A stretch of 64,000 nucleotides of DNA from an uncultured virus (IMG/VR IMGVR_UViG_3300013105_000023) (IMGVR_UViG_3300013105_000023); one strand, 5' to 3'; positions 3,001-47,129 are shown, counted from the stretch's first letter. Numbers and translations are program-made. The notes: generated by a model from the letters alone, not told the origin.

Positions 3001-3843
3001 CGTATGAAACGTCTGGACGAAGAGATCGGTATGGACATGACCTCTCCGGACATGGAAGGGATGGTTGATCTGCGTCGTGACCTGTATGAAGGCGCCAAGG
3101 CTATCATGGCCGGCGGCGAGCCGATCGACTTCCAGGCGAAGCAGAAAGGCCTGAAAGGTCTGCTCCAGCAGATCAAAGGTGACGAAGGTCCGAAGAACGG
3201 TTTCTTCCAGAGCAAGCTGTTATCTAAAAAGCAGGACTTCTCTGGCCGTGGCACCATCTACGCGGCGCCGGACGTGGGCTTCAACGAAGCGAAGATTCCG
3301 AAGGATCAGCTGTGGGAGATGTACAAGATGCACATCATCCGCGACCTGAGCCAGAAGGGTTACGATCTCGCCGAAGCGAAGAACGCGTACGAGTCTCGTA
3401 ATGATGCGGCCATGAATTCGTTCAACCACATCGTCGACACTGTACCTGTCCTGTTGAACCGTGCACCGACCCTGATGCGTACCAACATCATGGCGATGCG
3501 TCCAATTCCTTCCGAAGGGAAGACGATTGGTCTGAACATTCTGCACCTGCCAGGTTACGCCGCGGACTACGACGGCGACGCCCTGTCAATGTACGTGCCG
3601 ATGACGCCGGAAGCTGTGAAGGAAGCTCGTGAGAAGTTAATGCCGAGCAACCACCTGCATGACGCCCGCCGCGGATTCGGTAACCCGATGTTCGCCCCAG
3701 GTCACGAAGCCATCCTCGGTTCCGTACACCTGACGCAGCCGGACATGGAGCAGAAGGTCCACGAGTTCAAGACTGAAGAGGAAGCCCTCGCAGCCTTGAA
3801 GGAAGGGAAGATCAAATCCAACACCCCGATTAAGATCGGCTAA
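1..3843 (+). CDS. Multisubunit RNA polymerase, beta subunit fused to N-terminal half of beta' (probably 5'-partial)
   Basis: Beta motifs: NVHPSNLGIIDPSRTPE, GDKVTGLHGNKGVVS, PLDLILNPASVTSRINLGQ, QPTKG..GYMEF. Beta' motifs follow in the same frame: GGLFD, MPVIPPVMRP, LLSKKQDFSGRGTI, VLLNRAPTL and catalytic AADYDGD (3559-3579). The frame is open at the window edge. Confidence 0.93.
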   Translation, partial: EMTLDKETTEVTLGKSFGGIEPETLLRAMHNIVQVYSKKRPEDNRDSLQFKRVQNLPDFIGRRFEENKTHQTVGKAFDRIKYNMSRLKEDAPSLREVIPSKPFNKIYTDFVIGSQLSSTPDETNPIESIENVGKVTLIAKGEGGMSSERQATSESRNVHPSNLGIIDPSRTPESSSAGLDQRFTISARRDKEGGMYARALDAKTGKMVYLSANELMTKVVGFPDGIKSGKPQVQAQVKGEFKSVPRSEVEYWIPSGTDMYTITTNLVPFLNANHPGRLTMAGKAIPQALSLVHREAPLVQTLADNGQTFVKQIGQIVSTVAPAAGTVVKAEPNSITIKTEEGKQHVVDFVKNLPFNMKGFHDDEAHGLQVGDQVKAGQVLSDNNYTKNGEFAIGKNLETAYMPYKGFNHEDGIVVSRSACAKLTSNHAYKVEYSMSKETVADLGKYKSAFAGKFTADQLNKLDNRGFAKPGVTLHYGDPVYAVLETRTLTETDMVLGRLHKTLVNPYRSAAEIWDHEEPGVVTDCSTDGSKIRIMLRSERQLEVGDKVTGLHGNKGVVSAILEDDEMPHAKATGKPLDLILNPASVTSRINLGQVFEAAAGKIAQKDGQPYKTKVYDEGNVVKNMMDKLKEKGLSDTDTVYDPKTGHVYGDRVLTGPQYILKLNKTTDANYSARSVGGYDNNAQPTKGGDDGAKSVGYMEFLGLLGSNARANLKEIGTVKSEGGDHADTHDYWDKFMRGLPLPQPKTTFATKKFFDYLRGSGINVSERNGNLVASPMTDREVLANSSGEIHKPDMILARNVSPVKGGLFDMAVTGGPEGTNWSHYKLMEPIVNPVMEMPVRDLTGLNQEQFNNVVSGKFGVIRRGHGQFDLVDTHKDDAVIKRINVTGLLNKAASDDGEALVGGHAIKAMLGDIHVQDELTHLRQAVADEKSTAKRDKMIKKMKFLAGLDKQGFSDPSKAYVLHNMPVIPPVMRPYSISGSRLSFADVNELYKHHMLVNGRMKRLDEEIGMDMTSPDMEGMVDLRRDLYEGAKAIMAGGEPIDFQAKQKGLKGLLQQIKGDEGPKNGFFQSKLLSKKQDFSGRGTIYAAPDVGFNEAKIPKDQLWEMYKMHIIRDLSQKGYDLAEAKNAYESRNDAAMNSFNHIVDTVPVLLNRAPTLMRTNIMAMRPIPSEGKTIGLNILHLPGYAADYDGDALSMYVPMTPEAVKEAREKLMPSNHLHDARRGFGNPMFAPGHEAILGSVHLTQPDMEQKVHEFKTEEEALAALKEGKIKSNTPIKIG

Positions 3844-6969: not shown

Positions 6970-7245
6970 CTACGTCGTGCGTTTCCTTACACACAAGTCC
7001 CACAGTTCCTGTGGTGCTTCAGACTTCCACTCCGTGAAGCCTTGCGTGCCCTCCTGGATCCAAGCCCAGTTAGGGACGTGCTCTTTAAAGAGGGTCTTCG
7101 AGTAGACCCGGATGCGGCCAAAGAGTAGAATATCTTTGACGAAATACTGCATGCGACGAAGCTCCTTATCGACGTATCCCTGCATCGGAAGTTCATACTC
7201 CCGAGCAAAAGCGCGATGTCGTACCACGAACAGCTTACTGAACAT
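6970..7245 (-). CDS. Hypothetical protein
   Basis: 91 aa; AAGGAGG SD; GGTATAAG upstream. Confidence 0.6.
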   Translation of the reverse strand: MFSKLFVVRHRAFAREYELPMQGYVDKELRRMQYFVKDILLFGRIRVYSKTLFKEHVPNWAWIQEGTQGFTEWKSEAPQELWDLCVRKRTT

Positions 7246-7314
7246 AAATCCTCCTTAGTTCTGTATATTACTTATACCCTAAAATAGGTTCAGTTGATCA
7301 ACGAAAAAGGTGAC

Positions 7315-10602: not shown

Positions 10603-12462
10603 ATGAATTTTAGTCAAATGGCTCTGGAAAAGCTGAATGCTGCTTCTCCCGGCCTGAGCAAGTACGTGATTGCGTTCAAGGATATGACCTCTGAACTGCA
10701 AGATTCGGACGGGGTGGAAGTCGGCGTCTTCATCATGCGAAACGGTGGAAGCCTGTTCTACGTCCCAGTGATCTCTCGCGGCGGCGTGACGTTCCCTATC
10801 GACTCCATCTATTTGGCTGATCGTAAGGCGTTCTTCCCGTTAACCAAGAAGACCATCGAGCAGATTAAGACGAGCCAGAACTCAAACGTTGGCCAGTCTG
10901 CCCGCATCCCGCAGGGCGTCATCAGCAACCCAGATCTGAAAGACCTGGTCGTACCGCCACGCACCGGTAAGTTCATGTACGCAAGCGACGGCCGTTTAGG
11001 CGGTATCATTGCGCTGTCTGCACCGGAAATCCGCAAGGACCTGGCTGACGTGATCACCAAGTCTGCCGAAGTGAATGACGCCCTGGGCGCCATGCTGGAC
11101 CTGCCGGCACTGACCGAGTCACTGCTGAACGACGAGCGTCTGGAATTCACCATGCAGAAGCAAGCCCGTGTGCTCTTCGACGGGGATGGCCTGCCGAACG
11201 AAGCCGTTCAGAACATCCTGAACAAGGGTTACCACATCGAAGGCGAGCATGATCACACCCGTGTGGTTGTTGAATCTGCCGGTGCGTCCCACTTCACCAA
11301 GCTGACCGCTTGTGAACCTGGCCACGCGTACACCGCAGAAGGCATCGGTGGTGCAGAATTGCCAATCGCTATCCTGCCACAGAGCTCGATGAGCCTGCAG
11401 CACAAAGCCGTTCTGGTGGCCCAACCGGATGGTACCTTTGCGTTCATCGACCCTAACGTCGTTGTTCACCAGCAGGAACGCCCGTACGAAAACATCGTGA
11501 AGAACTTGCTGGAATCAAAAGCCAGTGACGCCTTCGTTCTGGTCGAGCAAGGTGACAACCGTGAAGTGATGTTCTTCGACGGCAGCGGCTACTTCGTGTT
11601 CCGTTCAACCGGTCCGGCGACGCTGGATAACGGAGTGACCATCATGAAGGGTTACGTTCTGCAAGGTGCCGGTGGCTCTACCATGGCGACCCTGGTGATT
11701 TCAGAAGGGATGCACGGCCTGATTCACGTCCAACCGACGGAAAACAAAGGTCTGAACATCTACCTGAACGCCTCGTGCAAAGCCTTCGTGGGTTACACGC
11801 CGAGCCTGGATTCTCGTATGGAACGTTCACTGTCGTCTGCGATTGTTCGTCACGAGCACCGCACACTGGCCGTTCTGCCTGAATTCCACACCATGACCTT
11901 CCACAATGGCCAGTTCGCCATTGACGGTCGTATGGTCGGTGGTCGCGGTGACGCTGCCCGTATCCTGGTGGAAGAACTGAAGCTGCAACCGAACGATTCT
12001 GAATCGCTGCTGAAATCAGCCGAAGAGAACCGCAAGGTTGAGATGCACATGTCGAAAGAAGCAGCAGAAAGCTCGAAGCCAACCCCGATCGTCGAGTACG
12101 GTCAGAAGTTGACTCCGCAAGTGCAGATTTCCGGTGACGCCCGTCAGCGTCAAATGGGCATGGCTGATCGTGTGACTGCCGCGGCGAAGACCCGTGACAA
12201 GTCTGTCGTTGAAGCGACGATCATCTCTGAGCTGCTGAATGACCCGGACATGTTCGGTACCATCAACGAATATCTCCCGGACATCGGTCAAGCTGTCGAC
12301 CGTATCGGTCGTGTACTGTTCCTGGCCCGCGTTAACTCAAACAAGCTGTCCGACACAATGGATCCAGAGGCACTGAGTAACATGGTCACGAACCTTCGTA
12401 GTTCTTACACCAATCTGGGTGAGAGCTACATCAAGCTTGAGCAGATCGCCTCCAATGTCTAA
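10603..12462 (+). CDS. Hypothetical protein, probable head/virion component
   Basis: 619 aa; first gene of the head module; GGAG SD; CTAAAATA upstream. Confidence 0.6.
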   Translation: MNFSQMALEKLNAASPGLSKYVIAFKDMTSELQDSDGVEVGVFIMRNGGSLFYVPVISRGGVTFPIDSIYLADRKAFFPLTKKTIEQIKTSQNSNVGQSARIPQGVISNPDLKDLVVPPRTGKFMYASDGRLGGIIALSAPEIRKDLADVITKSAEVNDALGAMLDLPALTESLLNDERLEFTMQKQARVLFDGDGLPNEAVQNILNKGYHIEGEHDHTRVVVESAGASHFTKLTACEPGHAYTAEGIGGAELPIAILPQSSMSLQHKAVLVAQPDGTFAFIDPNVVVHQQERPYENIVKNLLESKASDAFVLVEQGDNREVMFFDGSGYFVFRSTGPATLDNGVTIMKGYVLQGAGGSTMATLVISEGMHGLIHVQPTENKGLNIYLNASCKAFVGYTPSLDSRMERSLSSAIVRHEHRTLAVLPEFHTMTFHNGQFAIDGRMVGGRGDAARILVEELKLQPNDSESLLKSAEENRKVEMHMSKEAAESSKPTPIVEYGQKLTPQVQISGDARQRQMGMADRVTAAAKTRDKSVVEATIISELLNDPDMFGTINEYLPDIGQAVDRIGRVLFLARVNSNKLSDTMDPEALSNMVTNLRSSYTNLGESYIKLEQIASNV

Positions 12463-21696: not shown

Positions 21697-24600
21697 ATGC
21701 AAATTACCAAATTAAGCTTTCTTAGCACACAATCCCTCGGAGATAGCGTCTTTGCGGTCGAGGAAGTCGTTGACATTCCTATCGACCAAGTCTTTGGTAC
21801 CCATCGTGCTCGTGAAAAAGCCCTGATCAACTTGATTGGGTCTGACGGCGTGCAGAAGGTATCTCGTGACACCTGGAAAATCGTCAAGGACATCACCCTG
21901 GAAGCGGCCAACGCGACAATGCGTAAAGGCGATTACTTCCGTGTGAAACTGGACGAAGAAGGGGACGACTCTCCAATCCACTTTGACCTGGACGCGACTG
22001 GCGTATTCGTACTCAGCCGTGAGGTATTTGCTTCACTCCAAACCTATGCTGTTCTGGAACCGGGTAAAGAGCAGGCGATCCGCATGCAGTTCACCTTCGG
22101 CGGTAAGCCGGTGGTTGACGCCGTGCTGACCAGTGCTTTCAGCTCCCTGAACTTGGTCCCAGTAGACGCCACCAACGGGGTCTACGAGCTGCGTTTCTTC
22201 ACAGCCATGGCACCGAGTGATGACATCCTGAACATCGAAGTGACAGGCGTCTCGCTGCGTAATTCAGTGTACGAAGCCCCTGTTCACATCACTGTGCGTG
22301 AACCCCTGCTGTCAATCGTCCCGGTTGACCTCGAGCTGCACGCTGAGCAAACCAAAGACATCACTTGGCAGTTGCTGATGGAGGGTAAACCCGCTCCAGT
22401 TTCAACTTCGCTGGGAGCAACCGCTAATCCACAATCTGTGGGTGGCGTGAAGACCGACCTGATCGCCAAGATCGGTGCGTTCAAACTGATTGATTCTGCC
22501 AACGCGATTTATTCTCTGAACGTGACGGCGACGGATGAAGTCGGTGCAGCGTCCACTATCGACACTACTTACCGCTTCTCTGCCAACTTTATCGGTGAGA
22601 TTCCCGTCCCGATCAAGCTGCTGAGCAAAGAATCGCTGTACATCACCCACAGTATTGACGTGCTGGAAGCCAACCAGACTCAGCTGATCCCGATCACGCT
22701 GAAGCTTGGCGCCACGGCCCAACGTCCGGTAACTGACGCGAAGGCGGTTCAGATTGTCATCACCGGTGCGTGCATCCAGAGCGTTGAATCTGAACTGGTT
22801 CCTGTCGATCCTGCAAAGGGCGTTTATGCGTACCGCGTAACGACTAACCATAAAGGTGGTCCAATCAGCATCCGTTCGGTGCTGGCGACCAGCGGTAACC
22901 CGTACCCAGATTTCTACAACCTGACTGCCAAAGGCACCAAGGTCATTGCCCGTGCGTTGAATACCCTGCCGGCTGCCGACACTGCGGACCTGACTTTCCG
23001 TGTGACCCAAGATCGCCTGGGCGGCACCACCAATCTCGTGGGTGCAATCGCCAGGACCTTCACCGTTGGCGGCGGCGCTATTGCCCGCGTTAACGGTTCC
23101 GTGGAAGCTGTAGGCCAGGGTGTTTACAAAGTGTCAGTCACGACGAACAACGTCGGTGGATCTGTCCCTGTGACCGCAACCCTGACGATTGAAGGCGTGG
23201 ACGTAGACGTTTCGTTCTCAACGTCGGCTGCCCGTCTGTCGGATGCTGTATTGACCCCGACCGGCCCAGCGCTGACCGGTGAAACTGTACAGAACGTACC
23301 CCTGAACATCAAACTGGATGGCGTCGACTTTGACGTGACCAACGCGACGGTTCGTCTGTCAGGCTCGTCTTACGTTGCCAACGGCATCGTTCGTCGTACC
23401 GGTAAAGGCACCTACGAGATCGTGGACGTGGATGTGAACGGTAAAGGTGGTGTGCTCAACATCTCCCTGACCGCCCTGGTTAAAGGTTATTCGCAGACGA
23501 TGTTCACGACGGTCCCCGTCAACCCAATTTCAAACGTTCTGGCATCGAACGTGACTCACCTGCGTCCAACGACGACGGACAACATTCAGTTCAACCTGAC
23601 CCGTGACGGCTTAGTGCTGACCGGCATCAAGCTTGGCAAGGCGACCATCACTGGCGGCCAGGTCGTGTCGTATGACGGCACCACGACAGCCATCGATGCC
23701 AACACTGGTCGTTACCAGATCAAAAGTGTGACCGCGGGCGCCCCGGCGACGCAGGAATACTTCCAGATCAGCCTCCCGGTTGTGATCAAAGGTTACAGCT
23801 ACACGGTGATCTTCAACAGCTACACTGAAGCTATGCCGAACTTCAACGTTGGCGGCGGTTCTTCAAGCAACCCTGGCGCTGGACAAACGGTTCCTGGCGG
23901 CGGCGGTCCTGTTGTTCCTGGACTGGTTGGTGGAAACCTCGCAGGCGGACTGACCCAAGATTACTGCATGTACTTCGAAGTGGATGGCAAACCTGCCAAC
24001 ATCACGAGCGGTACCGTGACGGCGTCTGGTGTTGTTCTCGCTTCCGGCCCTGATGCACAGCTGGCGATCAAAGGCCCCGGCACTGCGTGTATCACCGGTC
24101 TGTCAACCACCACAGACGGCGGATACCTGACGATCAAAGGCTCTATGGTCATTGACGGCATCACCTATCCGTTGAACTTCGTGATCCGTAACGCCCCGGC
24201 GGCGCCGACGATCAGCAACGTGACAGTCCTTGAGTGTGAAAGCATTCAGACTCTGTACTTCACGATGAAGCAAGGCGTGACTCCGGTTCCGGATGCCGTG
24301 CTGAGCAACGTTGCGGTGACTGGCGATGCGATTGAGAGCTTCAGTGATTTCGGTCTGGTAGATGCAGACACCGGTCGTTACCGCGTGAACGTGATCACCA
24401 ACGATAAGGGCGGAAACGTTCATATCACGTTGGGTGCTACGTTCGTCGGCATGCTGTATCCAGTAAGCTTTGACACGACGGCCAAAGACCTCAGCACTGT
24501 CGGTGACGGTTCTGGTTGGAAAATGGTGGCAACGGCCCCGACGGCGGCGACCATCAGTCCTCAATCCTTCTCGTTCACCCGTGGAGGCGATCCGGTCAAA

Positions 24601-27600
24601 AACCCAAGCGTGAAAGACGTGACGGTTACTGGTGTCAGCGTCCTGAGCTCAACGGATAACGCTGAGAAGATGAGTGAAACCACTTTCCGTGTTACTTCGG
24701 TATCACTGGATTCTCGTGGCGGTGCAGTCAAGCTGAAAGCCAGCGCCAGTGTTAATGGCGTCACGTGGCACCCTATGGAGCAATCCTTCACTCTGGCTCA
24801 GGCATCGGCACCGGTTGTCACCGGTCAGACCAAGATGCTGGTTGCCCGTCAGGAAGCTACCCTGCAGTTCTCTCTGACCCGTAATGGTCGTCCCGTGAAG
24901 GCGAATACCATCACGAATATCCGTGTGAGCGGAACTCCGGTTGCCAGCGCTAAGCAGGATCTGATCGTGGTCAACGCCGCAGCAGGCCAGTATGGCACGA
25001 CCGTGACGCCAAACGACCTCGGTGGCAACATCGACGTGATCTTCGACCTGAATGAAGGCGGAGTGGATTACCCGAACTTGACCTTCACCGGTACAGCGGA
25101 TATCTATCACCCGTGGAAAGCGACGATGCTGAACGGTCCGGTTCCGGAGCGCCTGACAGCAATCGACTTCTCGTCACATTTGGATGACGGCACCCCTGTT
25201 GCAATCACCAGCGGTACTGCGGTTATCACTGGCTCTTGCCTGGTGTCGCCAACCGCGGAAACCACCCTGGTTTACCAGGATGCGACCAACAAGACGTATC
25301 GCATTCCGAACGTCATGGTGAACAACACCGGTGGCAACATCCACGTTGTTCTGAAGGTCATCTACGAAGGTGCTGAAATCATTCAGGAATTCGACTTCAC
25401 CGTTAAGGCACTGCCTGTTCTGCAAGCAGCGGCGACCGGTGCAGATCTGCCGTTCCAGACCACCAGCGATTTGACGTTCACCGTGGACCGTGGCCCGAGC
25501 AACCCGTCGGTCTTCAATAACTCGATGGTGAAAAACCTGACCGTTACTGGTGCAGCGGTAGCCGGCTATACCCCGACGATCATCCAGGTTAGTCCGGGTA
25601 ACTTCAAGCTGTCCGTACAGACCAACGGCAAGGGTGGCACCATCAACGTGGGCTTCACAGTAACGCTGGCTGGTATCGACTACCCGCTGAGCTTCACGAA
25701 GCTGGCTGTTGTAGAGCCTCCGGTGACGGCGGTAAGCACCAACACGTTGGTGACCAACACGTCTGCCACTAACATGGACTTCACGTTAATGCGTGGAACG
25801 GTGCCGTGTGCCGACGCCTTCGTGGTCCAGAGCATCACGATGAACTCGAAGTCAGTGAGTTCGTACTCGCAGTCGATCATCAACGTGAACGTGGCACTCG
25901 GCCAGTATCGCATTCAGGTTACGACTTCGGCGTATTCTGATCCGATCCCTGTCACCATCGTCGGTACCGTTCGCGGTGAACCGGTAACGTTGACCTTTAC
26001 AGCTCAGATCCAAGCCGGTGTACTGCCGACGGTGACCCTACTGACATCATCTCTGTTCCGTGGCCAGGCGTCTAACGTCAACCTGTCCTTTAAGAATGGG
26101 ACTACGGATATCAACGGTGCGGTGACGCTGGATTCCGTTGACGGTCCGCTGACCAACCCAACGCTGAACTCAAACGGGGTGATCACCGGTATTCCAACTG
26201 TGGCAGGCGCCATCGACCTGACGATTAACTTCACCTGGAAGGGTGCAAGCTACTCATCGACTGTTACGGGCATCCCGGTGACTGAAGTGTACCCCGCGAC
26301 ACTGACCTCTACGTCGAAACTGACGGTAGGGAAGTTGAACACGACGACCTTCACAATGAACGGTGCGGATGGCAACGTGTACCCAGCTTCTGGTTTCACT
26401 TTCGCAATCACCGGCTCACCATTTGCCATGAGTCAGGCTCTGGCTCGCCAATCAGACGGCAGCTTCAGCGTTGGGTTCACGCCTTCGAGTGAAAGACTGT
26501 CTACCACGTTGACGATCGTTGTGACGGAAACGGCGACCAAAATCGTCCGCTACCACACCATTATGCTTGAAGCGTTACTGAGCCTGGAGGCCCGCTTCGT
26601 CGGCACTACGCCGCTGGATTCGTCTTCCCTGACCAACCAAGTGGTGTTCGACGTGTACAACACTGTGACGAATGCCGTCCAGGGGATCTACACCAAGGTC
26701 GACATGGACAGCTTGAAAGTCGTAGGCCGTGGCTCTGTAAATAACATCACCGGATGGTCAAGCTTCACTGTACCGGGAACCCCGACAGCGGCTCGCGGTT
26801 CTTTCTACGTGAGTGCTAACCAGGTTGACATCGTTGACGCCGACTACACTTTTGACTGGAACTCTGGTCTCCGTGTGTACAAGATCCCCGGTTCATTCCG
26901 TCTGCAGAAACCAATGACGGCTACCTGGACTGACATCGCGGGTGCTCAAGGTTCTGTTAAGAAAACGCTGAAAGTGAAGCTGCTTTCTGGCTCAACTCCA
27001 GTGGTCGACGCCCTTGATTCAGGAACGACGGTCACCAATGCCACAATCAATCAAAATCTTTATCTGATTGACGCAGCAACCGGAACCTACGGCATTGACG
27101 TGACACCCAACGGTGCAGCAACTTCAATGGTCGTGACCCTGAAGGTTAAACAGGCAGTCATGCCGTCAGTGATCAACACGTTCACCGCACAGACAGTTAC
27201 CGTTACTCCGGCACCGATCACGGCTGTTGCCAACAACGTTCTGGGTCGTCAGACTCAGAATACCGGCGTGCTCATGGAAGTCTTGATCTCTCAAGGCACC
27301 GTTCCGATTACCAATGCCGTAATCAACTCGTACAGCATTACAGGTCCTGCGGTTGAAAGCGTCTATTCAGGACCAACTAACGCCGGCAGCGGCCTGTATC
27401 GTTGGGCGGTAAGAACCCGTTTCGACGGTGCGGCTAACCCACAAGTCATGATCAACGCGACGATCAACGGCGTGGGCTACGTGTTCAACATTGATTTCCC
27501 AATCGTTCCGGTTCAAGTTCTGGCACTCTCTGTTGTTTCTAGCGATCCACTGGCTAAAAACATCAGCGGGAAAGTGACTCTTAACGCAACCCGAGACGGC

Positions 27601-29766
27601 GCTACTCTCGGATTTGCAAACTCCATCGGTGGCGGCGGCGGTGTCGGTGTCCAATTCGGCACTAACATTATGGGTGCATCAAGCAACTACTCAATGAAGA
27701 GTGCAGTGATCAATCCTCAGTCGGGGAACTACATTGATTTCGTTGCTGTTCCTTTGACCAGTGGTACCGCTACGTGGACCGTTCGTCTTGTGTTGTATGG
27801 TGCGACGTATGACCTGCCGTTAACTGTTACTGTGGCGGATGCGGGAACGATCACTGTTGTGGGTGGCGTGCCAATGTATGCTGAAAAGGCTAACACGTTG
27901 ATCTTCAACATGACTCCTCCAGCTGGCGTGACCTATGACGGTACGGAGACGTTAACGGTAACGACTAAACCGACTCAGTGGGTTATTACGACTCCGCCGG
28001 TGCGTAATCCAGACGGTACTTACAGCATGGTAGTAACACCAAACGCAGAGTCTAACGACGTCTTCACCGTGACCGCTGCCAAAGGTGGAACGAACTATCG
28101 TAATGGCTGCCCGACAAACGTTGAGAACCGTTACGAGCTGCGTTTTGCTCCTAGTGGCGTGAATAGCGAGACTACCGTAGGGTTGATCTCCGCTCCGTGT
28201 AACTTGGTGACCAAACTGGGGAACACTCCTGGCGGATTTGACATGCAATCGGCGACTTTGGTTGACCGTGCGAGTGTCAAAGTGTACGCGGCGGCAGGGG
28301 TTATCAATCCAGCGGGTGCCGCACCGGATGCTGTTTATGGCAATAACTCTGCGTCATTCCGTGCGACGGTTCTTCAGAATGACTACGCGACAATGCACTG
28401 GTCAATCACCATCACGTCTCGTAACACTGGGTTTGTTTATACCGTCTACTCCGACGAGATCAACATCCATGACAATGCGAACTTGACGATGGTTACTACT
28501 GGGGCGCTGGAGTTAGGCCGTACGTTAGACATCAAGTTCAAGCTGACGTACGCCGTTTCGGGTAGACCGGTAACGAATGCCGTCCAGGCCAGCTCTCCGT
28601 CGGTAGGTGCAGGTTTAAGCAACCTGTCCAGCCTGAAAGTGATTGACGCAGCGAACGGGATCTATGCGGTGACGGCGACAGTGACGGCAACTTCGGGTAA
28701 CGTGTTCTTCACGCCTCGTTGGTCTTGGCCTCTGAGCAAAACTATCTATACTGGCGCCCAGCAGACATTTGCAACAGTCCGTGCAGTGACGGCGACGGTT
28801 CCGGCAATCGGTGCGACCACTCGTAACATCTATTTCTTAATGGTGGACGGGAACGGCCCGATCAAAGATGCGACCATTACTGCGATCTCTGCCGGGACAT
28901 ACGTTGACGCGGCTGCAGGTTCATTCACGGCGTATGACGCAACCAAAGGGGTTTACAAAGTCCCGATGACAGTGTCGAAAGCGATGGCAAACGGACAGCC
29001 TAACGATAATGTGAACGTAACTTACCACCGTACAGGTGGAGAAGACATCACGGTTCCAGTTGCGTTAGTCGTTCAGAGCCCTGGCGTCAAAGTGAGTGTG
29101 GATGGGCAAGGTTGGCCGAGTACCGGAGGTGTGGTGCCTGTAACGCCAGTGAATAACTGGTTGAATGCATCCTTCACGACCTTTGCAGCACCCCGCTTGC
29201 AAACGCTGGATGGAGTAGACCTAGGACCGATCGGTGGTAACGTGCAGAATGACTATGCAAATACCAACAAGTTGATCTATAATCCTAGCGCCTTCTTCTC
29301 GCCACAAAAGGACGTGACTCTGAAGGGTGGGACAGTTACTGCATCAGGAACCACCTACTACGTTTGGTCAGATCCGTTTGACGTTTACCGAGTGCCATAC
29401 GCAGTGATGACACCGACAACGACTAACCTCAGGGCGACAGTCCCGGGTAACTCGATCCCAGCCCAAACTCTGCCATCCTTCGAAGTGACATTCAAGGATG
29501 ATTTGGGTAACCCGTTAAGTAATGTGACTTTGACTGGAATTAACAGTAATAACAACAATACTAACTTCTACCCAGTAGGGACCGGTGCATCGTGGGCCTC
29601 AGCGATGGTGCCTAAGACTGATGGATCAGACGGTGTGTACGTGATTTCAATGAGAACCGATGGTTATGCCTTCAGCTACCAAGCGTCTTACGGTGCGACG
29701 TTCGGGGTGGACATTCCAGGTTTAGCAACGAAATCGGTGGCAGCCGGCATCAAGCTTAACTACTAA
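21697..29766 (+). CDS. Giant Ig-like repeat fibre/adhesin (2689 aa)
   Basis: Thr/Val/Gly-rich with ~100-aa repeats carrying (I/V)DAxxGxY and NxxGGxI motifs. Confidence 0.75.
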   Translation: MQITKLSFLSTQSLGDSVFAVEEVVDIPIDQVFGTHRAREKALINLIGSDGVQKVSRDTWKIVKDITLEAANATMRKGDYFRVKLDEEGDDSPIHFDLDATGVFVLSREVFASLQTYAVLEPGKEQAIRMQFTFGGKPVVDAVLTSAFSSLNLVPVDATNGVYELRFFTAMAPSDDILNIEVTGVSLRNSVYEAPVHITVREPLLSIVPVDLELHAEQTKDITWQLLMEGKPAPVSTSLGATANPQSVGGVKTDLIAKIGAFKLIDSANAIYSLNVTATDEVGAASTIDTTYRFSANFIGEIPVPIKLLSKESLYITHSIDVLEANQTQLIPITLKLGATAQRPVTDAKAVQIVITGACIQSVESELVPVDPAKGVYAYRVTTNHKGGPISIRSVLATSGNPYPDFYNLTAKGTKVIARALNTLPAADTADLTFRVTQDRLGGTTNLVGAIARTFTVGGGAIARVNGSVEAVGQGVYKVSVTTNNVGGSVPVTATLTIEGVDVDVSFSTSAARLSDAVLTPTGPALTGETVQNVPLNIKLDGVDFDVTNATVRLSGSSYVANGIVRRTGKGTYEIVDVDVNGKGGVLNISLTALVKGYSQTMFTTVPVNPISNVLASNVTHLRPTTTDNIQFNLTRDGLVLTGIKLGKATITGGQVVSYDGTTTAIDANTGRYQIKSVTAGAPATQEYFQISLPVVIKGYSYTVIFNSYTEAMPNFNVGGGSSSNPGAGQTVPGGGGPVVPGLVGGNLAGGLTQDYCMYFEVDGKPANITSGTVTASGVVLASGPDAQLAIKGPGTACITGLSTTTDGGYLTIKGSMVIDGITYPLNFVIRNAPAAPTISNVTVLECESIQTLYFTMKQGVTPVPDAVLSNVAVTGDAIESFSDFGLVDADTGRYRVNVITNDKGGNVHITLGATFVGMLYPVSFDTTAKDLSTVGDGSGWKMVATAPTAATISPQSFSFTRGGDPVKNPSVKDVTVTGVSVLSSTDNAEKMSETTFRVTSVSLDSRGGAVKLKASASVNGVTWHPMEQSFTLAQASAPVVTGQTKMLVARQEATLQFSLTRNGRPVKANTITNIRVSGTPVASAKQDLIVVNAAAGQYGTTVTPNDLGGNIDVIFDLNEGGVDYPNLTFTGTADIYHPWKATMLNGPVPERLTAIDFSSHLDDGTPVAITSGTAVITGSCLVSPTAETTLVYQDATNKTYRIPNVMVNNTGGNIHVVLKVIYEGAEIIQEFDFTVKALPVLQAAATGADLPFQTTSDLTFTVDRGPSNPSVFNNSMVKNLTVTGAAVAGYTPTIIQVSPGNFKLSVQTNGKGGTINVGFTVTLAGIDYPLSFTKLAVVEPPVTAVSTNTLVTNTSATNMDFTLMRGTVPCADAFVVQSITMNSKSVSSYSQSIINVNVALGQYRIQVTTSAYSDPIPVTIVGTVRGEPVTLTFTAQIQAGVLPTVTLLTSSLFRGQASNVNLSFKNGTTDINGAVTLDSVDGPLTNPTLNSNGVITGIPTVAGAIDLTINFTWKGASYSSTVTGIPVTEVYPATLTSTSKLTVGKLNTTTFTMNGADGNVYPASGFTFAITGSPFAMSQALARQSDGSFSVGFTPSSERLSTTLTIVVTETATKIVRYHTIMLEALLSLEARFVGTTPLDSSSLTNQVVFDVYNTVTNAVQGIYTKVDMDSLKVVGRGSVNNITGWSSFTVPGTPTAARGSFYVSANQVDIVDADYTFDWNSGLRVYKIPGSFRLQKPMTATWTDIAGAQGSVKKTLKVKLLSGSTPVVDALDSGTTVTNATINQNLYLIDAATGTYGIDVTPNGAATSMVVTLKVKQAVMPSVINTFTAQTVTVTPAPITAVANNVLGRQTQNTGVLMEVLISQGTVPITNAVINSYSITGPAVESVYSGPTNAGSGLYRWAVRTRFDGAANPQVMINATINGVGYVFNIDFPIVPVQVLALSVVSSDPLAKNISGKVTLNATRDGATLGFANSIGGGGGVGVQFGTNIMGASSNYSMKSAVINPQSGNYIDFVAVPLTSGTATWTVRLVLYGATYDLPLTVTVADAGTITVVGGVPMYAEKANTLIFNMTPPAGVTYDGTETLTVTTKPTQWVITTPPVRNPDGTYSMVVTPNAESNDVFTVTAAKGGTNYRNGCPTNVENRYELRFAPSGVNSETTVGLISAPCNLVTKLGNTPGGFDMQSATLVDRASVKVYAAAGVINPAGAAPDAVYGNNSASFRATVLQNDYATMHWSITITSRNTGFVYTVYSDEINIHDNANLTMVTTGALELGRTLDIKFKLTYAVSGRPVTNAVQASSPSVGAGLSNLSSLKVIDAANGIYAVTATVTATSGNVFFTPRWSWPLSKTIYTGAQQTFATVRAVTATVPAIGATTRNIYFLMVDGNGPIKDATITAISAGTYVDAAAGSFTAYDATKGVYKVPMTVSKAMANGQPNDNVNVTYHRTGGEDITVPVALVVQSPGVKVSVDGQGWPSTGGVVPVTPVNNWLNASFTTFAAPRLQTLDGVDLGPIGGNVQNDYANTNKLIYNPSAFFSPQKDVTLKGGTVTASGTTYYVWSDPFDVYRVPYAVMTPTTTNLRATVPGNSIPAQTLPSFEVTFKDDLGNPLSNVTLTGINSNNNNTNFYPVGTGASWASAMVPKTDGSDGVYVISMRTDGYAFSYQASYGATFGVDIPGLATKSVAAGIKLNY

Positions 29767-42226: not shown

Positions 42227-42459
42227 TGCCAACTCTTGATGATGTAATGGCCAAACTGGAAGATATCCATTCCGATGTAAAAAAGGGTCTGGACTTCCTG
42301 TCCGAACTGCAAGGAGCCGCAATGGGTTCCTGGCAGTGGGACAAGAAAGCCGGCATTCTCCGCATGTACAATACCGAAGGGACAGAGATCGGGATCTTCT
42401 CCGTTTCTGACTCGCCGGATAAAGCCATGCGGGAACGCCGTACAGACCTGGAATCTTAA
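42226..42459 (+). CDS. Hypothetical protein
   Basis: 77 aa; GGAG SD; its stop overlaps the stop of the convergent E1 gene. Confidence 0.6.
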   Translation: MPTLDDVMAKLEDIHSDVKKGLDFLSELQGAAMGSWQWDKKAGILRMYNTEGTEIGIFSVSDSPDKAMRERRTDLES

Positions 42460-43499
42460 CGGATACCCAGGATAGTAGCCATCTGCGGGGAAACTCTTTC
42501 GAGCGTACCCGCTTCAAGCATATCATTTACCGATTTCACAATCGGATCCCAGAACTCTTCCTGACTTGATCCATAGACCGAATTCATCGTACGCGTTGAT
42601 ACGGGATACGCACGGACGTCTTCGTCAGGTTCCAAACGATGGCGGTTACCGGTCAGCACGCCTTCAATCCAGTCACGATCCAGACGCGTCTGGTCGTTCC
42701 CGTTATGAATATCGTAGAACCAGGTTTCCACTTTGATTGGCATCATCATGTAAATGTTCTGAAAGACAGAGAACATCGACATCGCCATGACCGCATTCAC
42801 TGCTGCCGTTTGTTCCAGGTCCGCACAGGAAGCATCTGGGTCCCCCTGGTAGCCAGAGGAACGCAGGTACTCCGCCATTGGACACGGAATGTAAGGCAGA
42901 GGGATGTCGGCATTGGCCGCTTTCTGCACCAGACGGTTGAGGATATCCAGATCCGCATCGGTATCCCGACGGGACAGCACACGGGACGAATACACACGGG
43001 TTTGGCCGAAGGTGTTTTCGTTACCGGCATCCACGATCAGATGCTCAATACCCGAACGCAGCGTCGACATGAGGATCGATTGGATGATCTCAAAGCGGGC
43101 CTTCATGTTATCAACGCACAGGAAGATAGTTGACGGACGATCGGTTACCAGACGCTGGAAGTTTTGGGGCACGTGGTTGGAAAGCCAATGGGACCAGTTA
43201 TCCGAATCCCGGAAGTAGTGCGGGATGCACACAATCGGGAGTTCGAATGCTGCACCGTAACGTTCAGCCAGACATTCAGCCTTGTTACGACCCACGTCGT
43301 CCACGATGAAGTTCTGACGGGTGAGGTTTTTGACTTCCACCTCGTCGCCGTCGATGAGAGTCATGGTGGGGACCAGATCGTTCCACTGACCGCGGGACAT
43401 AATCTGGCCGAGCATTGGCAGTAGGCGGCCACCGGTGCCGCCACAGCCTACCACCACCACATTATTCATAATCTGACGGTTTTTGTAGGAAAACATCAT
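42456..43499 (-). CDS. ThiF/E1-like ubiquitin-activating enzyme (PRTRC ThiF-like)
   Basis: VVVGCGGTG, DGDEVEVKNLTRQNF, GRNKA, CVDNMKAR, DAGNENTFGQ; candidate catalytic Cys in DASCADL. Confidence 0.9.
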   Translation of the reverse strand: MMFSYKNRQIMNNVVVVGCGGTGGRLLPMLGQIMSRGQWNDLVPTMTLIDGDEVEVKNLTRQNFIVDDVGRNKAECLAERYGAAFELPIVCIPHYFRDSDNWSHWLSNHVPQNFQRLVTDRPSTIFLCVDNMKARFEIIQSILMSTLRSGIEHLIVDAGNENTFGQTRVYSSRVLSRRDTDADLDILNRLVQKAANADIPLPYIPCPMAEYLRSSGYQGDPDASCADLEQTAAVNAVMAMSMFSVFQNIYMMMPIKVETWFYDIHNGNDQTRLDRDWIEGVLTGNRHRLEPDEDVRAYPVSTRTMNSVYGSSQEEFWDPIVKSVNDMLEAGTLERVSPQMATILGIR

Positions 43500-44701
43500 G
43501 CACTCCGAATGTCGAAATCTTTATTTAAACGCTCGATAACTCTGCGAGCTTCGCTTGCCGTGTTTACCACGAAGATGCCTTCCTGGAAGAGGATTTCATC
43601 ATCAACAACCGCACTTGCCAGCTCTTTGGCAACCGCAGCGTTCATTTCATCATCTTCTTCGTTGTAGACAGAGTTCATGAGATCGGTGACGGCATCATCG
43701 AAAGGAATATCGTCGGCCAAACCCAGGCTCAGTAGGTTGCTTCGTCCGAACTCCGGATCCAGAAAGTCTAGCGCTTCAGATCGCGCGGCCCCCGTGCTCG
43801 CCGTGTTTCCTTCCGCGTCCTGTCCTTGAAATCGGGCATTCCAATTGTCAATACCCTCCTCCGCTTCCTGCTCATACTGGCTTAACGCGTTGTAGCCACT
43901 GCCGACACGTGAACCACCACCGAACACTTTTGAGCCAGCTCCGGTAGGATTGCGATAGTCGTACCGCGGCGCCGGTGCCGTATAGCGCTGCACTTGCACG
44001 TTTCCCATCCAGCCTTCCACTTCCGGAGATACCGACTTTTCCGGCGTTGCGAAGAAGTCCTCCATGTTAAGGTTATTCACCTTGTCTTTGTACGCGTTGA
44101 AGCGCCAGATGACTTTCGGTGAGTTGGTATCCAGACGGCCGGCAACACCGGAGATGCCTGCGTACGTCTTGTCATCGCTCTCATCGGTGCCAGAGAAGAA
44201 GGCATCCATGGAGTTGTGCGAGTGGATGTCGAGGATAACCTCTTCATCTTCCTTCACGTGAGACCAGTCGTACGTTACGCGGGCTTTAGAGACCTGCTGG
44301 GTTGGGATTGCCACACGGTAAGACTCAGTGGTTTTGTTCCACACGATGTGGGCCATGGCTTCGTAATCACCGTGACCAGTACCGCTCGGAGGAACCATCG
44401 CCATCACTTTCTTAAAGAACCCCAGGATATCCGTCAGCATCTGCACCGGAATCTTCTGGTTGTTCACCAGCGGGTTCAGGTAAGGCTTCAGCTTGGATGC
44501 ACCCAGTTTGATAGGCAGCTCACCGACTTTGACCAGTGAAGAACGACCGAGGGAGAATTCATTGTAGCGGTACACCACCCCATCTTTAGCCAGGATGTGG
44601 ACAATCGGATCTTGCAGGAAGTTGCCGCCTTCAAAGTAGGCATCTTCACTGACCAGGCAGTTCATAAAAGGGACCAGCTGCATTACGCCATTAGTGCTCA
44701 T
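43496..44701 (-). CDS. JAB/MPN+ metallo-isopeptidase (PRTRC protein A-like)
   Basis: Upstream Glu (YEAMA) and DIHSHNSMDAFFSGTD (HxH-x7-S-x2-D); long acidic C-terminal extension. Confidence 0.88.
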   Translation of the reverse strand: MSTNGVMQLVPFMNCLVSEDAYFEGGNFLQDPIVHILAKDGVVYRYNEFSLGRSSLVKVGELPIKLGASKLKPYLNPLVNNQKIPVQMLTDILGFFKKVMAMVPPSGTGHGDYEAMAHIVWNKTTESYRVAIPTQQVSKARVTYDWSHVKEDEEVILDIHSHNSMDAFFSGTDESDDKTYAGISGVAGRLDTNSPKVIWRFNAYKDKVNNLNMEDFFATPEKSVSPEVEGWMGNVQVQRYTAPAPRYDYRNPTGAGSKVFGGGSRVGSGYNALSQYEQEAEEGIDNWNARFQGQDAEGNTASTGAARSEALDFLDPEFGRSNLLSLGLADDIPFDDAVTDLMNSVYNEEDDEMNAAVAKELASAVVDDEILFQEGIFVVNTASEARRVIERLNKDFDIRSA

Positions 44702-45480
44702 TCGTCTTCTTCCTCTTCATCATCGTTATCGTTGTCATCTTCGTCCAGTTCATCTGGGCTCTCGGTGACGGCAGTTGGGTAACCTGGCAGAATCCCGAAC
44801 GGGAACGCCTCTTTGTCTTTCAGGTAGCTGAACAGCTGGCTTGGAGACCAGCCGTCACGGGTGCGGGTGCCCAGGTCGTCGTTGAACGGCGAGGCCAGCA
44901 GCACGTGGTGATACACTTCGTTCAGACCACGAAGATCGGTGTCATACAGCGTGCGGTAGGAGTTCGCACCGACGCACATGTTGCCGTCACCATACTGGTT
45001 CGGGAACGGCAGTGCCCACAGACGGTTACGGTGGTTCTGAGCATTGGTACCCCAATCGTCCAGACTCGGGACCTCATCCTCTTTGTAATCCGTGCAGAAC
45101 CACTTCACCTGCTCCAGGGTCCAGCGGTTGTTGTTACTGTTGTGATTGAGCTTGCAGAAGATCACCGTCGGCGGCACCGGGCAGCGATACGTACCTTTGC
45201 CCCCGCGGGAACGGTTCGGTGCGTACTGCAGGTCGGCGATACGCTCTGGGAAGTACAGCAGCAGTTGCAGCTCCGTGCGGGAGCTCTTCATGGCCACGGT
45301 TTCGCTCGGCAGACGGAACGAACGCGTAGGTTCACGTTCCTGAGCCGCTTCCCCAGAGACAACCCGATCAAGCTCAGCCTTGAAGTCACCCATCGAGATG
45401 TTTTTGAAGGCACCCTGACCGTTCGGGACGCGAACGTGGTTTTCATACAGGGTGATTTGGATTCCTGAATTGTTACTCAT
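44698..45480 (-). CDS. Prokaryotic E2-like conjugating enzyme (Prok-E2 family D/PRTRC protein B-like)
   Basis: LWALPFPNQYGDGNMCVG parallels the E2 HPN...G.(I)C motif; SPFNDDL; acidic tail. Confidence 0.8.
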   Translation of the reverse strand: MSNNSGIQITLYENHVRVPNGQGAFKNISMGDFKAELDRVVSGEAAQEREPTRSFRLPSETVAMKSSRTELQLLLYFPERIADLQYAPNRSRGGKGTYRCPVPPTVIFCKLNHNSNNNRWTLEQVKWFCTDYKEDEVPSLDDWGTNAQNHRNRLWALPFPNQYGDGNMCVGANSYRTLYDTDLRGLNEVYHHVLLASPFNDDLGTRTRDGWSPSQLFSYLKDKEAFPFGILPGYPTAVTESPDELDEDDNDNDDEEEEDE

Positions 45481-45722
45481 ACGTAGTTGATCCTCGTACG
45501 AATTGCGGTGTATGGCCCAAAGTTGAACTCCATTGGGTTACGGCGGCGGCCGCTGTCCGGTGGGTTACGGGTCGTACGGAAAGTGATGTTACGCAACATC
45601 ATCATGCGTTGAAGCGGGGTGGTTTCCGGATTCAGCAATTGACGCTGCAGTTCTGCCATGACGACGGGACCGCTAGCTACGATCTCGCGGGCGTTCTGGA
45701 GCCCTTGTAATAGATCTTGCAT
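45477..45722 (-). CDS. Hypothetical protein in the Ubl operon
   Basis: 81 aa; AGGAG SD; overlaps both neighbours. Confidence 0.6.
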   Translation of the reverse strand: MQDLLQGLQNAREIVASGPVVMAELQRQLLNPETTPLQRMMMLRNITFRTTRNPPDSGRRRNPMEFNFGPYTAIRTRINYV

Positions 45723-46678
45723 ACGGAGAATGCTCCTAACTGTTTGAGAACATGAACGAAAGTGTCGAGATACTCGGTGACCACCGGTGTGTAGTTCATA
45801 CTCTGAGCCTCTCTTGCACGCTGGTTCGGTTGAACCTCAGTCTCTACTCGAGTTAAGGGACTGAAAGCGTCATAGACGAAAGCTAAGGATACGACCAGAG
45901 CACGGTAGCGTGTTCCGCGGTGTTGGCGAATAACCCGGTCATCGACAACGGACCACGTTGGTTTAGTTGCCGCAGCAATCTCTTCCAAGTGATCGAATGT
46001 TTTCGGGCAATAGACCAGGCGGACACCATGACGAATGGCCATGCTGTCAATGTAGCGAAGGTAACGGCGGACCAGAGGCGTGTCTTCTAAGTACACGCTG
46101 TAGGTTCTGACGCGGTCGGCCGGGTGTGCAGTGGACAGAAGCGTGTGATACGTTCCGGTCTCTGCCTCGGTGTAGACCAGCTCGTCATCCTGGAAGTGGT
46201 TATAGTCGGCGGAAGCGATAGTGTTATCGTTCCCGTTGATATGCAGTAGCGTGCGGATCGGATGTTTGATATCCTTGTGCACGAACTGCATCATCAACTC
46301 GAGCATACCCTGAACGCTTTCACCGCCACGACGAGAGAATGCGGCCACGACCGAACGATTATCGTGCTGGACGTACGGAACCATTTTCTCTTTGAAGAGG
46401 GCCGAGTTCAACTGATCGGCAGCCGTGTTCAGGTAAGAGAACCAGTGGCCGAGAGTGTTCAGGTTAGAGGCGGTTTCCGCCCCGGCGATAGCCCCGAACG
46501 CGTCGTCGACGTCGGACTGTGGGTGTACGGTGCCGCTGGGATTGACTCGCGTTCCCAAACCCACCTGGCCCAGAGACTCGAGGACCAATGCAGCTCGATG
46601 GTCTTCGGGATCCATAGGTTGGATGGCCATGTTACGGAATATCGTGCCGGCGGCGGAGGTGAAAAGTAAGTGGGACAT
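45677..46678 (-). CDS. Hypothetical protein in the Ubl operon
   Basis: 333 aa; GGAGG SD. Confidence 0.7.
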   Translation of the reverse strand: MSHLLFTSAAGTIFRNMAIQPMDPEDHRAALVLESLGQVGLGTRVNPSGTVHPQSDVDDAFGAIAGAETASNLNTLGHWFSYLNTAADQLNSALFKEKMVPYVQHDNRSVVAAFSRRGGESVQGMLELMMQFVHKDIKHPIRTLLHINGNDNTIASADYNHFQDDELVYTEAETGTYHTLLSTAHPADRVRTYSVYLEDTPLVRRYLRYIDSMAIRHGVRLVYCPKTFDHLEEIAAATKPTWSVVDDRVIRQHRGTRYRALVVSLAFVYDAFSPLTRVETEVQPNQRAREAQSMNYTPVVTEYLDTFVHVLKQLGAFSVCKIYYKGSRTPARS

Positions 46679-46693
46679 AAATCCTCCAGTAAC

Positions 46694-46730
46694 TAAAAAA
46701 AGAAAAGGAGCCCGAAGGCTCCTCTTTTTA
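46694..46730 (-). terminator. Intrinsic terminator between the Ubl gene and the enzyme genes
   Basis: Minus strand reads AGGAGCC-TTCG-GGCTCCT followed by TTTCTTTTTTT. Confidence 0.8.
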
Positions 46731-46745
46731 GACTAAGCCTTTGGC

Positions 46746-47129
46746 TTAGCCTTTAGTACCGGTACGGCGGGTAAAGTAGATGTGACGTACGCCGTCAACT
46801 TCTTCTTCGCGAGCATCCATAGATGCAGTCTGGAAAGCTGAGTCGAACTGACGTGCTGCGTCATCTTTGCTGATGTCCATACCGTCCAGAGTACGCGGAT
46901 CGCGGCCCGGGATGTGAACTACAGTGGAGTTCGCGCCTTTGGTGCCGGTGCGGCGGGTAAAGTAAATGTTGCGAACGTTACCGACCACTTCTTCGCGAGC
47001 ATCCATAGATGCAGTCTGGAAAGCTGAGTCGAACTGACGTGCTGCGTCATCTTTGCTGATGTCCATACCGTCGAGGGTACGAGCGTCACGGCCAGGAATG
47101 TGAACAACGGTAGAAGTGATAGTCGACAT
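46746..47129 (-). CDS. Tandem di-ubiquitin-like protein (PRTRC protein C-like), 127 aa
   Basis: Two near-identical units of 65 and 62 aa, each ending YFTRRTGTKG; AAGGA SD before ATG 47129. Confidence 0.85.
   Translation of the reverse strand: MSTITSTVVHIPGRDARTLDGMDISKDDAARQFDSAFQTASMDAREEVVGNVRNIYFTRRTGTKGANSTVVHIPGRDPRTLDGMDISKDDAARQFDSAFQTASMDAREEEVDGVRHIYFTRRTGTKG

Follow-up and report, generated by a model that had tools for sequence, protein, structure and literature searches.

Eukaryotic polyubiquitin genes are built of head-to-tail units, each of which ends in an activatable tail, and the locus considered here raises the question of whether a virus has arrived at the same arrangement. 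The gene is found in a 64,000-nucleotide stretch of DNA (referred to below as the window) from an uncultured virus, IMGVR_UViG_3300013105_000023. An earlier sequence-only reading had described it as a head-to-tail di-ubiquitin-like precursor (di-Ubl) resembling polyubiquitin genes, which is either cut after its internal TKG by a co-encoded JAB peptidase or conjugated whole as a pre-formed chain. At issue are whether the duplication is genuine, whether its units are modifiers, how the repeat has been maintained, and in which form the product would be used.

Anatomy of the Tandem Gene

With respect to gene structure, the minus-strand dimer, its unit coordinates and its 186-nt period as given in the sequence-only reading were all reproduced by ORF translation, MAFFT alignment and Tandem Repeats Finder, the last of which returned one array (period 186, 1.9 copies, 87% matches, score 560). 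The gene and its immediate surroundings contain the following features.

46749..47129, minus strand: di-Ubl coding sequence, 127 aa; ATG at 47129, stop codon at 46746-46748
46935..47129, minus strand: unit 1, residues 1-65, ending in RRTGTKG
46749..46934, minus strand: unit 2, residues 66-127, beginning with ANSTVVH and ending in RRTGTKG, then the stop codon
46988..47072, minus strand: unit 1 copy of the 85-nt core, which both units share without mismatch
46802..46886, minus strand: 85-nt core of unit 2, the gene-conversion tract; in the unit-1 state at 8 sites where the nearest record, L002, differs
46703..46726, minus strand: terminator-like hairpin, 10 pairs plus a T-run, directly after the di-Ubl stop codon
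47191..47199, minus strand: TGGTATAAT, an extended -10-like element upstream of the di-Ubl gene, found by eye

The reading frame is open through both units, and translation bore out the claim that each ends in YFTRRTGTKG. The di-Ubl homologues share an MSTITS start, and an AAGGA ribosome-binding site is located 9 nt before the ATG. The TGGTATAAT element was absent from the output of a consensus scan and is a lead only.

At the DNA level, the two units show 90% mean column identity (MAFFT), and their longest identical run is the 85-nt core, which was recovered at exactly the coordinates previously reported. Outside this core, the last 58 codons contain 14 synonymous differences and 5 amino acid changes, in line with the earlier description of flanks that carry synonymous and a few amino acid changes. 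Overall, 53 of the last 58 residues are identical, and 23 of the 174 compared bases differ. Between the units, about 1 base in 10 is different. Specifically, unit 1 of the window lineage reads GNVRN at a site where unit 2 keeps the family consensus DGVRH; this stretch is near-invariant in 28 monomer-type sequences, and unit 1 departs from it at three positions.

These base differences, along with the open frame and the confinement of perfect identity to just 85 nt, argue against an assembly or sequencing artefact, which the sequence-only reading had named as grounds for rejecting its proposal. Moreover, the 176,323-bp viral genome nearest to the window, an independent and complete record (L002/G001; 100% completeness rating, direct terminal repeats), contains the same dimer, a protein cluster at 98% identity is found on 7 contigs, and diverged dimers occur in other records (P0002-P0004 and L010). 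An artefactual duplication is thus not indicated, and we regard it as extremely improbable.

Unit Number among Related Phages

The genome from which the window derives measures ~176 kb and is related to Salmonella phage Arash, a 180.8-kb myovirus with which the window region shares 74% DNA identity. Comparing unit number in related phages, as had been recommended, revealed that it varies from 1 to 5, with 1, 2, 3 or 4-5 units in individual relatives and the same tail on each. Near-length searches yielded 4 further dimers (127-128 aa), one truncated form and 26 monomer clusters, of which 24 are 63-67 aa in length and 2 are shorter; all of these proteins, dimers included, terminate in RRTGTKG or a close variant of it. 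When the full library was searched with a single unit, 17 cluster representatives were returned, 13 of which contain 2-5 tails, with or without linkers. Within these 13 multi-unit representatives, [RK]xGxKG is kept at every internal unit end found, and six have 1-3 residues past the final KG (A, K or ALA). L068 (AKR) and L059 (ND) likewise extend beyond the last Gly. Across 34 sequences, the R, T, G, K and G of the tail are invariant. A degenerate, tailless unit was observed in P0034 and P0038, and in many multi-unit relatives (P0036, P0039, P0044, P0045 and P0034) the last unit is preceded by a long, strongly acidic linker made up of E/D runs interspersed with Y or F.

A DNA pattern scan of viral contigs returned 49 stretches, comprising 28 family loci on 27 contigs and 21 chance matches. 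The 27 family contigs divide into 14 with monomers, 11 with dimers and 2 with 4-5 tails, in a sample that is biased to one Arg codon family and includes near-identical contigs. Across the family contigs, unit number varies while the remaining operon is kept. New subfamilies also came to light, among them one with a 140-aa dimer on six contigs (L051, L065, L074, L076, L077 and L083). At least three junction forms are represented (KG/AN or AT, KG/SVN or SVT, and KG/AEIS), which suggests repeated events, and we propose that duplication and loss account for the differences in unit number between related phages. A prophage or plasmid origin of the subfamily was also considered and is ruled out, within reach of the patterns used, by the absence of any relative from 185,579 bacterial and archaeal species genomes (one genome each, searched with two profiles).

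Fold of the Units and Their Tails

In terms of fold, an AF2 model of the dimer (mean pLDDT 81) contains two beta-beta-alpha-beta-beta units. In unit 1, strands at residues 6-10 and 17-20 are followed by a helix at residues 26-37 and by strands at residues 42-49 and 52-59, and pLDDT falls below 50 only at junction and tail residues 63-65. Both units end in RRTGTKG, and together with this low pLDDT they display the flexible, Gly-ended tail anticipated for a ubiquitin-like (Ubl) modifier.

The best Foldseek matches to the dimer were a di-ubiquitin-derived binder, linear di-ubiquitin, ISG15 and tandem POTRA domains, all with E values of at least 8.5e-3. Alignment with VIA-align returned mostly beta-grasp proteins (GB1, protein L, Fubi, ISG15, SUMO, UBX and MoaD) at weak Z scores of 3.3-5.0, and FdhD topped the wide structural search by the same method. 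At the sequence level, di-Ubl matched NCBIfam PRTRC_C with an E value of 0.021 (score 14.9 versus a cut-off of 45.95), while a five-tail relative matched Pfam Prok_Ub at 2.3e-5 (24.5 bits; cut-off 25) and another relative did so at 9e-4. Pfam gave no ubiquitin match for di-Ubl, and Ubl, E2-like and JAB profiles run against PDB sequences gave no usable match and none to a solved Ubl, E2 or JAB. Taken together, the modeled unit is consistent with a small beta-grasp fold, at scores that do not constitute proof. The earlier designation of di-Ubl as a tandem ubiquitin-like protein is supported by the AF2 fold, by neighbors that are mostly beta-grasp proteins, and by the weak PRTRC_C and Prok_Ub matches.

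An Operon of Predicted Conjugation Enzymes

The two-unit Ubl gene is the first of an operon in which it is followed, on the same strand, by the genes listed here in order.

45677..46678, minus strand: 333-aa protein of no assigned family; synteny retained in all close relatives
45477..45722, minus strand: 81-aa ORF, overlapping the 333-aa gene at its end; synteny retained in relatives
44698..45480, minus strand: E2-like protein, 260 aa, with Cys169 in PNQYGDGxMCxGxNSYR
43496..44701, minus strand: JAB/JAMM peptidase, 401 aa, with an extra domain at the N terminus
42456..43499, minus strand: ThiF-type E1, 347 aa, with GCGGTG loop, NLxRQ, Asp130 and Cys225

The co-encoded JAB on which the sequence-only reading relied is indeed present with an intact JAMM motif, and it is accompanied by an E2-like protein with an invariant Cys and by a ThiF-type E1, the set of partners expected of a Ubl modifier. 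The JAB protein matches Pfam Prok-JAB (1.4e-7) and NCBIfam PRTRC_A (9e-21; 74.3 versus a cut-off of 101.8), and its JAMM residues Glu114, His160, His162, Ser170 and Asp173 are invariant in 10 JABs down to 25% identity (alignment A7). Similarly, the GCGGTG loop, NLxRQ, Asp130 and Cys225 of the E1 are invariant across 10 sequences (alignment A8), and the protein matches Pfam ThiF (1e-12) and NCBIfam PRTRC_ThiF (3e-15; 56.1 versus a cut-off of 144.75). PHROGs gave a weak match for the E1 and none for the other operon proteins.

The E2-like protein matches Pfam Prok-E2_D with an E value of 0.0018 (18.5 versus a cut-off of 25), and this was the sole family matched by 8 of 32 E2-like homologues. Cys169 is invariant across all 32 sequences (alignment A6). 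A Foldseek search with the AF2 model of this protein (pLDDT 83) found nothing meaningful (best E 0.13). VIA-align of the same model placed E2 enzymes at ranks 1-7 and in most of the top 30, with UbcH10 at a Z score of 5.7 over 118 residues and others at 4.5-4.9 over 116-130 residues. As these Z scores are modest, the E2 assignment is read jointly with the HMM match and the invariant Cys. Judged by their conserved motifs, the operon enzymes look active.

The association of these genes is a stable one. JAB and E1 genes lie downstream of the Ubl gene on the same strand in all 16 records with enough flank (the window, 8 close loci, L011, L012 and 5/5 further records; two short contigs end earlier). 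The gene for the terminase large subunit is located upstream of di-Ubl in divergent orientation, and the Ubl gene adjoins terminase and virion genes in close relatives. The 333-aa protein gave no match in Pfam, NCBIfam, PHROGs, PADLOC or the protein Atlas, and it is only 32-49% identical among relatives in which the E1 is 59-76% and TerL 83-98% identical; we consider it a candidate specificity factor. Shorter, unrelated-looking proteins (199 and 173 aa) replace it in L011 and L012.

These enzymes also bear on the possibility that the units are not modifiers, and serve instead as a structural or regulatory beta-grasp domain, a ThiS/MoaD-like sulfur carrier, or a multi-core precursor on which a ThiF-like adenylating enzyme would act, as happens in some RiPP pathways. 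The only matches of the E1 to sequences of solved structures are to ThiF-type proteins, MccB and PaaA (E 1.7e-5 to 7e-4), the structural matches of the unit are weak, and the neighboring terminase and virion genes in close relatives could be taken to point in the same direction. However, the MccB and PaaA matches cover E1 residues 3-78 only, which is the generic Rossmann part, and the operon always includes an E2-like protein whose Cys is invariant as well as a JAB whose JAMM motif is complete, neither of which belongs to sulfur-carrier or RiPP pathways. Moreover, the unit is predicted with confidence to fold as a 60-residue domain whose flexible tail ends in Gly, as opposed to a short core peptide. 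A function other than that of a modifier is, in our estimation, improbable.

Two differences among the operons of relatives were also observed. The operon proteins of the window and L002 are 98-100% identical except for the JAB, at 85% (window 43496-44701, L002 9234-10439), and the JAB differences fall mostly in the C-terminal half, which suggests a recombination patch or fast evolution of that half. In L011, a distant relative, a gene for an HNH endonuclease with an AP2 domain (11392-11937) separates the JAB and E1 genes and looks like a homing-endonuclease insertion in the operon.

Selection and Gene Conversion within the Repeat

In several relatives, the units of one gene are identical as proteins and distinct as DNA. 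Specifically, the units of L010/L085 share 58/58 residues with 20 synonymous codon differences, units 2 and 3 of L012/L058 share 58/58 residues with 16 synonymous differences, and the units of the L051-type 140-aa dimers share 66/66 residues with 30-32 synonymous differences. For these protein-identical pairs, pS is 0.35-0.72 with zero amino acid change (Nei-Gojobori; Fisher p 6e-11 to 4e-21). Because gene conversion would erase synonymous differences too, this pattern, as read from the sequences, means that each unit is separately under strong purifying selection. The units of the window have a pN/pS of 0.11. In the six contigs with 140-aa dimers, there may be selection against identity of the repeat DNA as well as for identity of the protein.

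Other members of the family are more differentiated. The units of L059 are strongly diverged (35/59 identical, pN/pS 0.8), and the 3-5-unit proteins combine differentiated unit types with acidic linkers. In a poorly resolved unit tree built on 58 columns, units pair by genome and not by position, and the unit-1 label requires 5 changes. This tree was also considered as a means to discriminate independent duplication from concerted evolution, which 58 columns cannot separate.

With respect to the 85-nt core, the sequence-only reading had proposed recent duplication or gene conversion, and comparison with L002 distinguishes between the two. Of the 384 bases of the di-Ubl gene, 10 distinguish the window from L002, all within the core or at its edge, and at 10/10 of these sites the two window units agree with each other. 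At 8 of the sites, unit 2 of the window has the unit-1 state, whereas unit 2 of L002 has the common monomer state (DLSKED); at the remaining 2, the window units likewise match each other. The longest identical run between the L002 units is 17 nt. Since the L002 units are diverged to this extent and the differences are confined to the core, the duplication predates the split between the window and L002. The core is a recent gene-conversion tract in the window lineage, so that gene conversion stands as its origin and recent duplication does not.

A Proposed Model for Processing of the Dimer

With these observations in hand, our preferred reading, which we hold to be somewhat probable, is that di-Ubl is a linear precursor of two ubiquitin-like modifiers, that it belongs to a phage-borne conjugation system, and that it is cut by the JAB after the internal Gly. 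We infer the following steps. The di-Ubl gene would be expressed from its own promoter-like region, and its product would probably be made in excess over the downstream enzymes, because a terminator-like hairpin separates the gene from theirs. The JAB would cut after Gly65 (RRTGTKG/ANS) to generate two units, each with a C-terminal Gly. This Gly would be adenylated by the ThiF-type E1, and the unit would then be transferred to Cys169 of the E2-like protein and from there to lysines on proteins of the phage or its host. Conjugation may also be reversed by the JAB.

In terms of cleavage, the junction is flexible in the model, the P1′ residue is small (Ala), and conservation of the internal tail is no less strict than that of the terminal one. 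The extra residues that follow the final Gly in some relatives would need to be removed before activation, and therefore a tail-cutting activity appears to exist in the family. The JAB peptidase BilC is described as cutting its Ubl between Gly97 and Ala98, as well as a Ubl-GFP fusion (PMC10557695), and BubCD as cleaving BubAB, a Ubl-E2 fusion (PMC11601596). Several observations weigh against a precursor. Close monomeric relatives end exactly at Gly and a stop codon, such that the conserved JAB is not needed for their maturation. The deviation of unit 1 in the window, the divergence of L059 and the tailless units of P0034 and P0038 also count against it, since differentiated units fit a multi-domain modifier as well. 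Finally, the fold matches are weak (Z of 5.0 or less, Foldseek E of at least 8.5e-3), and the family HMM matches are all below their cut-offs.

The main rival to the precursor model is accordingly that the dimer remains uncut, is activated only at Gly127 and is conjugated whole as a two-domain modifier, comparable to ISG15, FAT10 or the Ubl2/Ubl3 proteins of bacteria, with the internal tail acting as a linker. Bil and Bub Ubls with 1-3 beta-grasp domains are reported to act as one protein (PMC11601596, PMC11601603), and ISG15 is among the best Foldseek matches to the dimer. Within the family, the units of L059 and of the 3-5-unit relatives are differentiated and separated by linkers, and in the window the 5 differences between the last 58 residues of units 1 and 2 include the three departures of unit 1 from near-invariant positions, which keeps conjugation of the whole dimer a live alternative. 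Nonetheless, the internal RRTGTKG is kept letter for letter in every dimer, as is [RK]xGxKG at internal unit ends, and a mere linker would be expected to drift. Moreover, the fact that several lineages hold their units identical as proteins despite 16-32 synonymous differences is what selection should produce when its object is a monomer that, once released, has to suit a common E1, E2 and set of targets, and close relatives work with a single unit. We therefore view conjugation of the uncut dimer as possible but rather unlikely, and retain release of single units by the JAB as the preferred reading.

Relationship to Known Systems

The PRTRC system of TIGRFAM/NCBIfam, which is the same as the set of genes designated '6d', includes a ParB-related partner and PRTRC D/E/F proteins. 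No ParB-like or PRTRC D/E/F protein was found by NCBIfam among the proteins of the operon described here, in which the 333-aa and 81-aa proteins both lack an NCBIfam match. The '6d' operon was described by Iyer, Burroughs and Aravind in 2006, and its row in Table 1 of that paper lists a small single Ubl, a JAB with an N-terminal domain, an E1-like protein, an E2-like protein without the classical His, and a fast-diverging protein (PMC1779556). The window resembles this row in its gene set, in having E1, E2 and JAB as separate and not fused proteins, in the N-terminal domain of the JAB and in the presence of a fast-diverging protein. Furthermore, its best HMM matches are PRTRC_A, PRTRC_ThiF and Prok-E2_D, with weak matches to PRTRC_C and Prok_Ub. 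All of these matches are below curated cut-offs, however, and scores below the NCBIfam and Pfam cut-offs indicate a distant '6d'/PRTRC relative only. The Ubl is also tandem here and single in row 6d, and the carriers are large phages of the lytic type, not plasmids or ICEs. Among the PRTRC papers listed in our literature search, none was mechanistic by title or abstract.

The resemblance to polyubiquitin genes put forward in the sequence-only reading is supported in several respects. The units are arranged head to tail without spacers, each has a complete tail, their number varies from 1 to 5 between relatives, some genes encode extra C-terminal residues, and in several relatives the units are identical as proteins and differ by synonymous changes only. 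In contrast to polyubiquitin, there is no detectable sequence similarity to ubiquitin (Pfam, PDB), the tail is RRTGTKG and not LRLRGG, and the phage unit is a shorter, four-strand beta-grasp. The likely cutter is a JAB metalloprotease, and the units of the window are identical at 53/58 residues, not throughout.

Within prokaryotes, the Bub ('6e') and Bil systems likewise combine Ubl, E1, E2 and JAB and include tandem beta-grasp domains (polyUbl, Ubl3). In these systems, the domains are reported to form one differentiated protein and Ubl3 to build Ca-dependent filaments (PMC11601603), and they contain fused enzymes (JAB-E1, E2-E1, Ubl-E2) and a DUF6527 protease (PMC11601596). In the present case, every unit has its own tail, the enzymes are separate and the carrier is a phage. 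No DUF6527 match was found in the operon by Pfam, and PADLOC returned only generic E1/E1-E2 matches, for the E1. In modifiers of the ISG15/FAT10 type, the first domain lacks an activatable tail of its own, whereas unit 1 of the window keeps the full RRTGTKG. Finally, the I and K tail assembly proteins of lambda and T1 pair a Ub-like protein (TAPI) with a JAB-NlpC protein (TAPK), as described in PMC1779556. They share with the window a phage Ub-like domain and a JAB peptidase near virion genes. They differ from it in having no E1 and no E2, TAPI has no tandem, Gly-ended free tail, and no homology was detected here.

Implications

Bacterial ubiquitin-like conjugation is currently known as host defence against phages (Bil, Bub and type II CBASS). 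No description of a phage-borne system of the present kind was found in the literature outside subscription-only papers, and the locus apparently belongs to a wider, undescribed pattern of large phages that carry a Ubl-E2-JAB-E1 operon with a modifier gene of variable unit number. In a broader formulation, which we find plausible but stop short of calling likely, a widespread group of large lytic phages (~108-185 kb) encodes a full conjugation system in which the polyubiquitin logic has evolved independently, with 1 to 5 or more Gly-ended units that are kept identical by selection or homogenised through gene conversion, are in some cases followed by additional C-terminal residues, and are released by the JAB. 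If true, it would provide a first example of a polyubiquitin-type precursor outside eukaryotes, as well as a virus-side use of ubiquitin-like tagging in bacteria. The presence of full machinery in phage genomes beside packaging and virion genes raises the question of what the phage tags, whether virion parts, host proteins or host defences. The tandem modifier gene also offers a testable case for the origin and upkeep of polyubiquitin-type genes far from eukaryotes, in which duplication, loss, gene conversion and per-unit purifying selection are all open to study. A cultured relative, Salmonella phage Arash, makes the system tractable, and it could serve as a model for the uncharacterised '6d'/PRTRC family.

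Annotation of Phage Arash and Other Observations

With respect to Arash itself, the GenBank entry gp251c (72 aa, L001 7078-7296, minus strand) is read in another frame than the conserved 66-aa Ubl ORF (7091-7291, minus strand). Because gp251c is annotated in the wrong frame, the Ubl is missing from the annotated proteome of Arash, and the words ubiquitin and ThiF are absent from the Arash paper. The virion proteome of Arash was considered as evidence of packaging and set aside, as its 116 proteins include obvious non-structural enzymes and their numbering relative to GenBank is unclear. Elsewhere in the window, two long ORFs are found on the plus strand, one of 2689 aa at 21697-29766 and another of at least 1280 aa at 1-3843.
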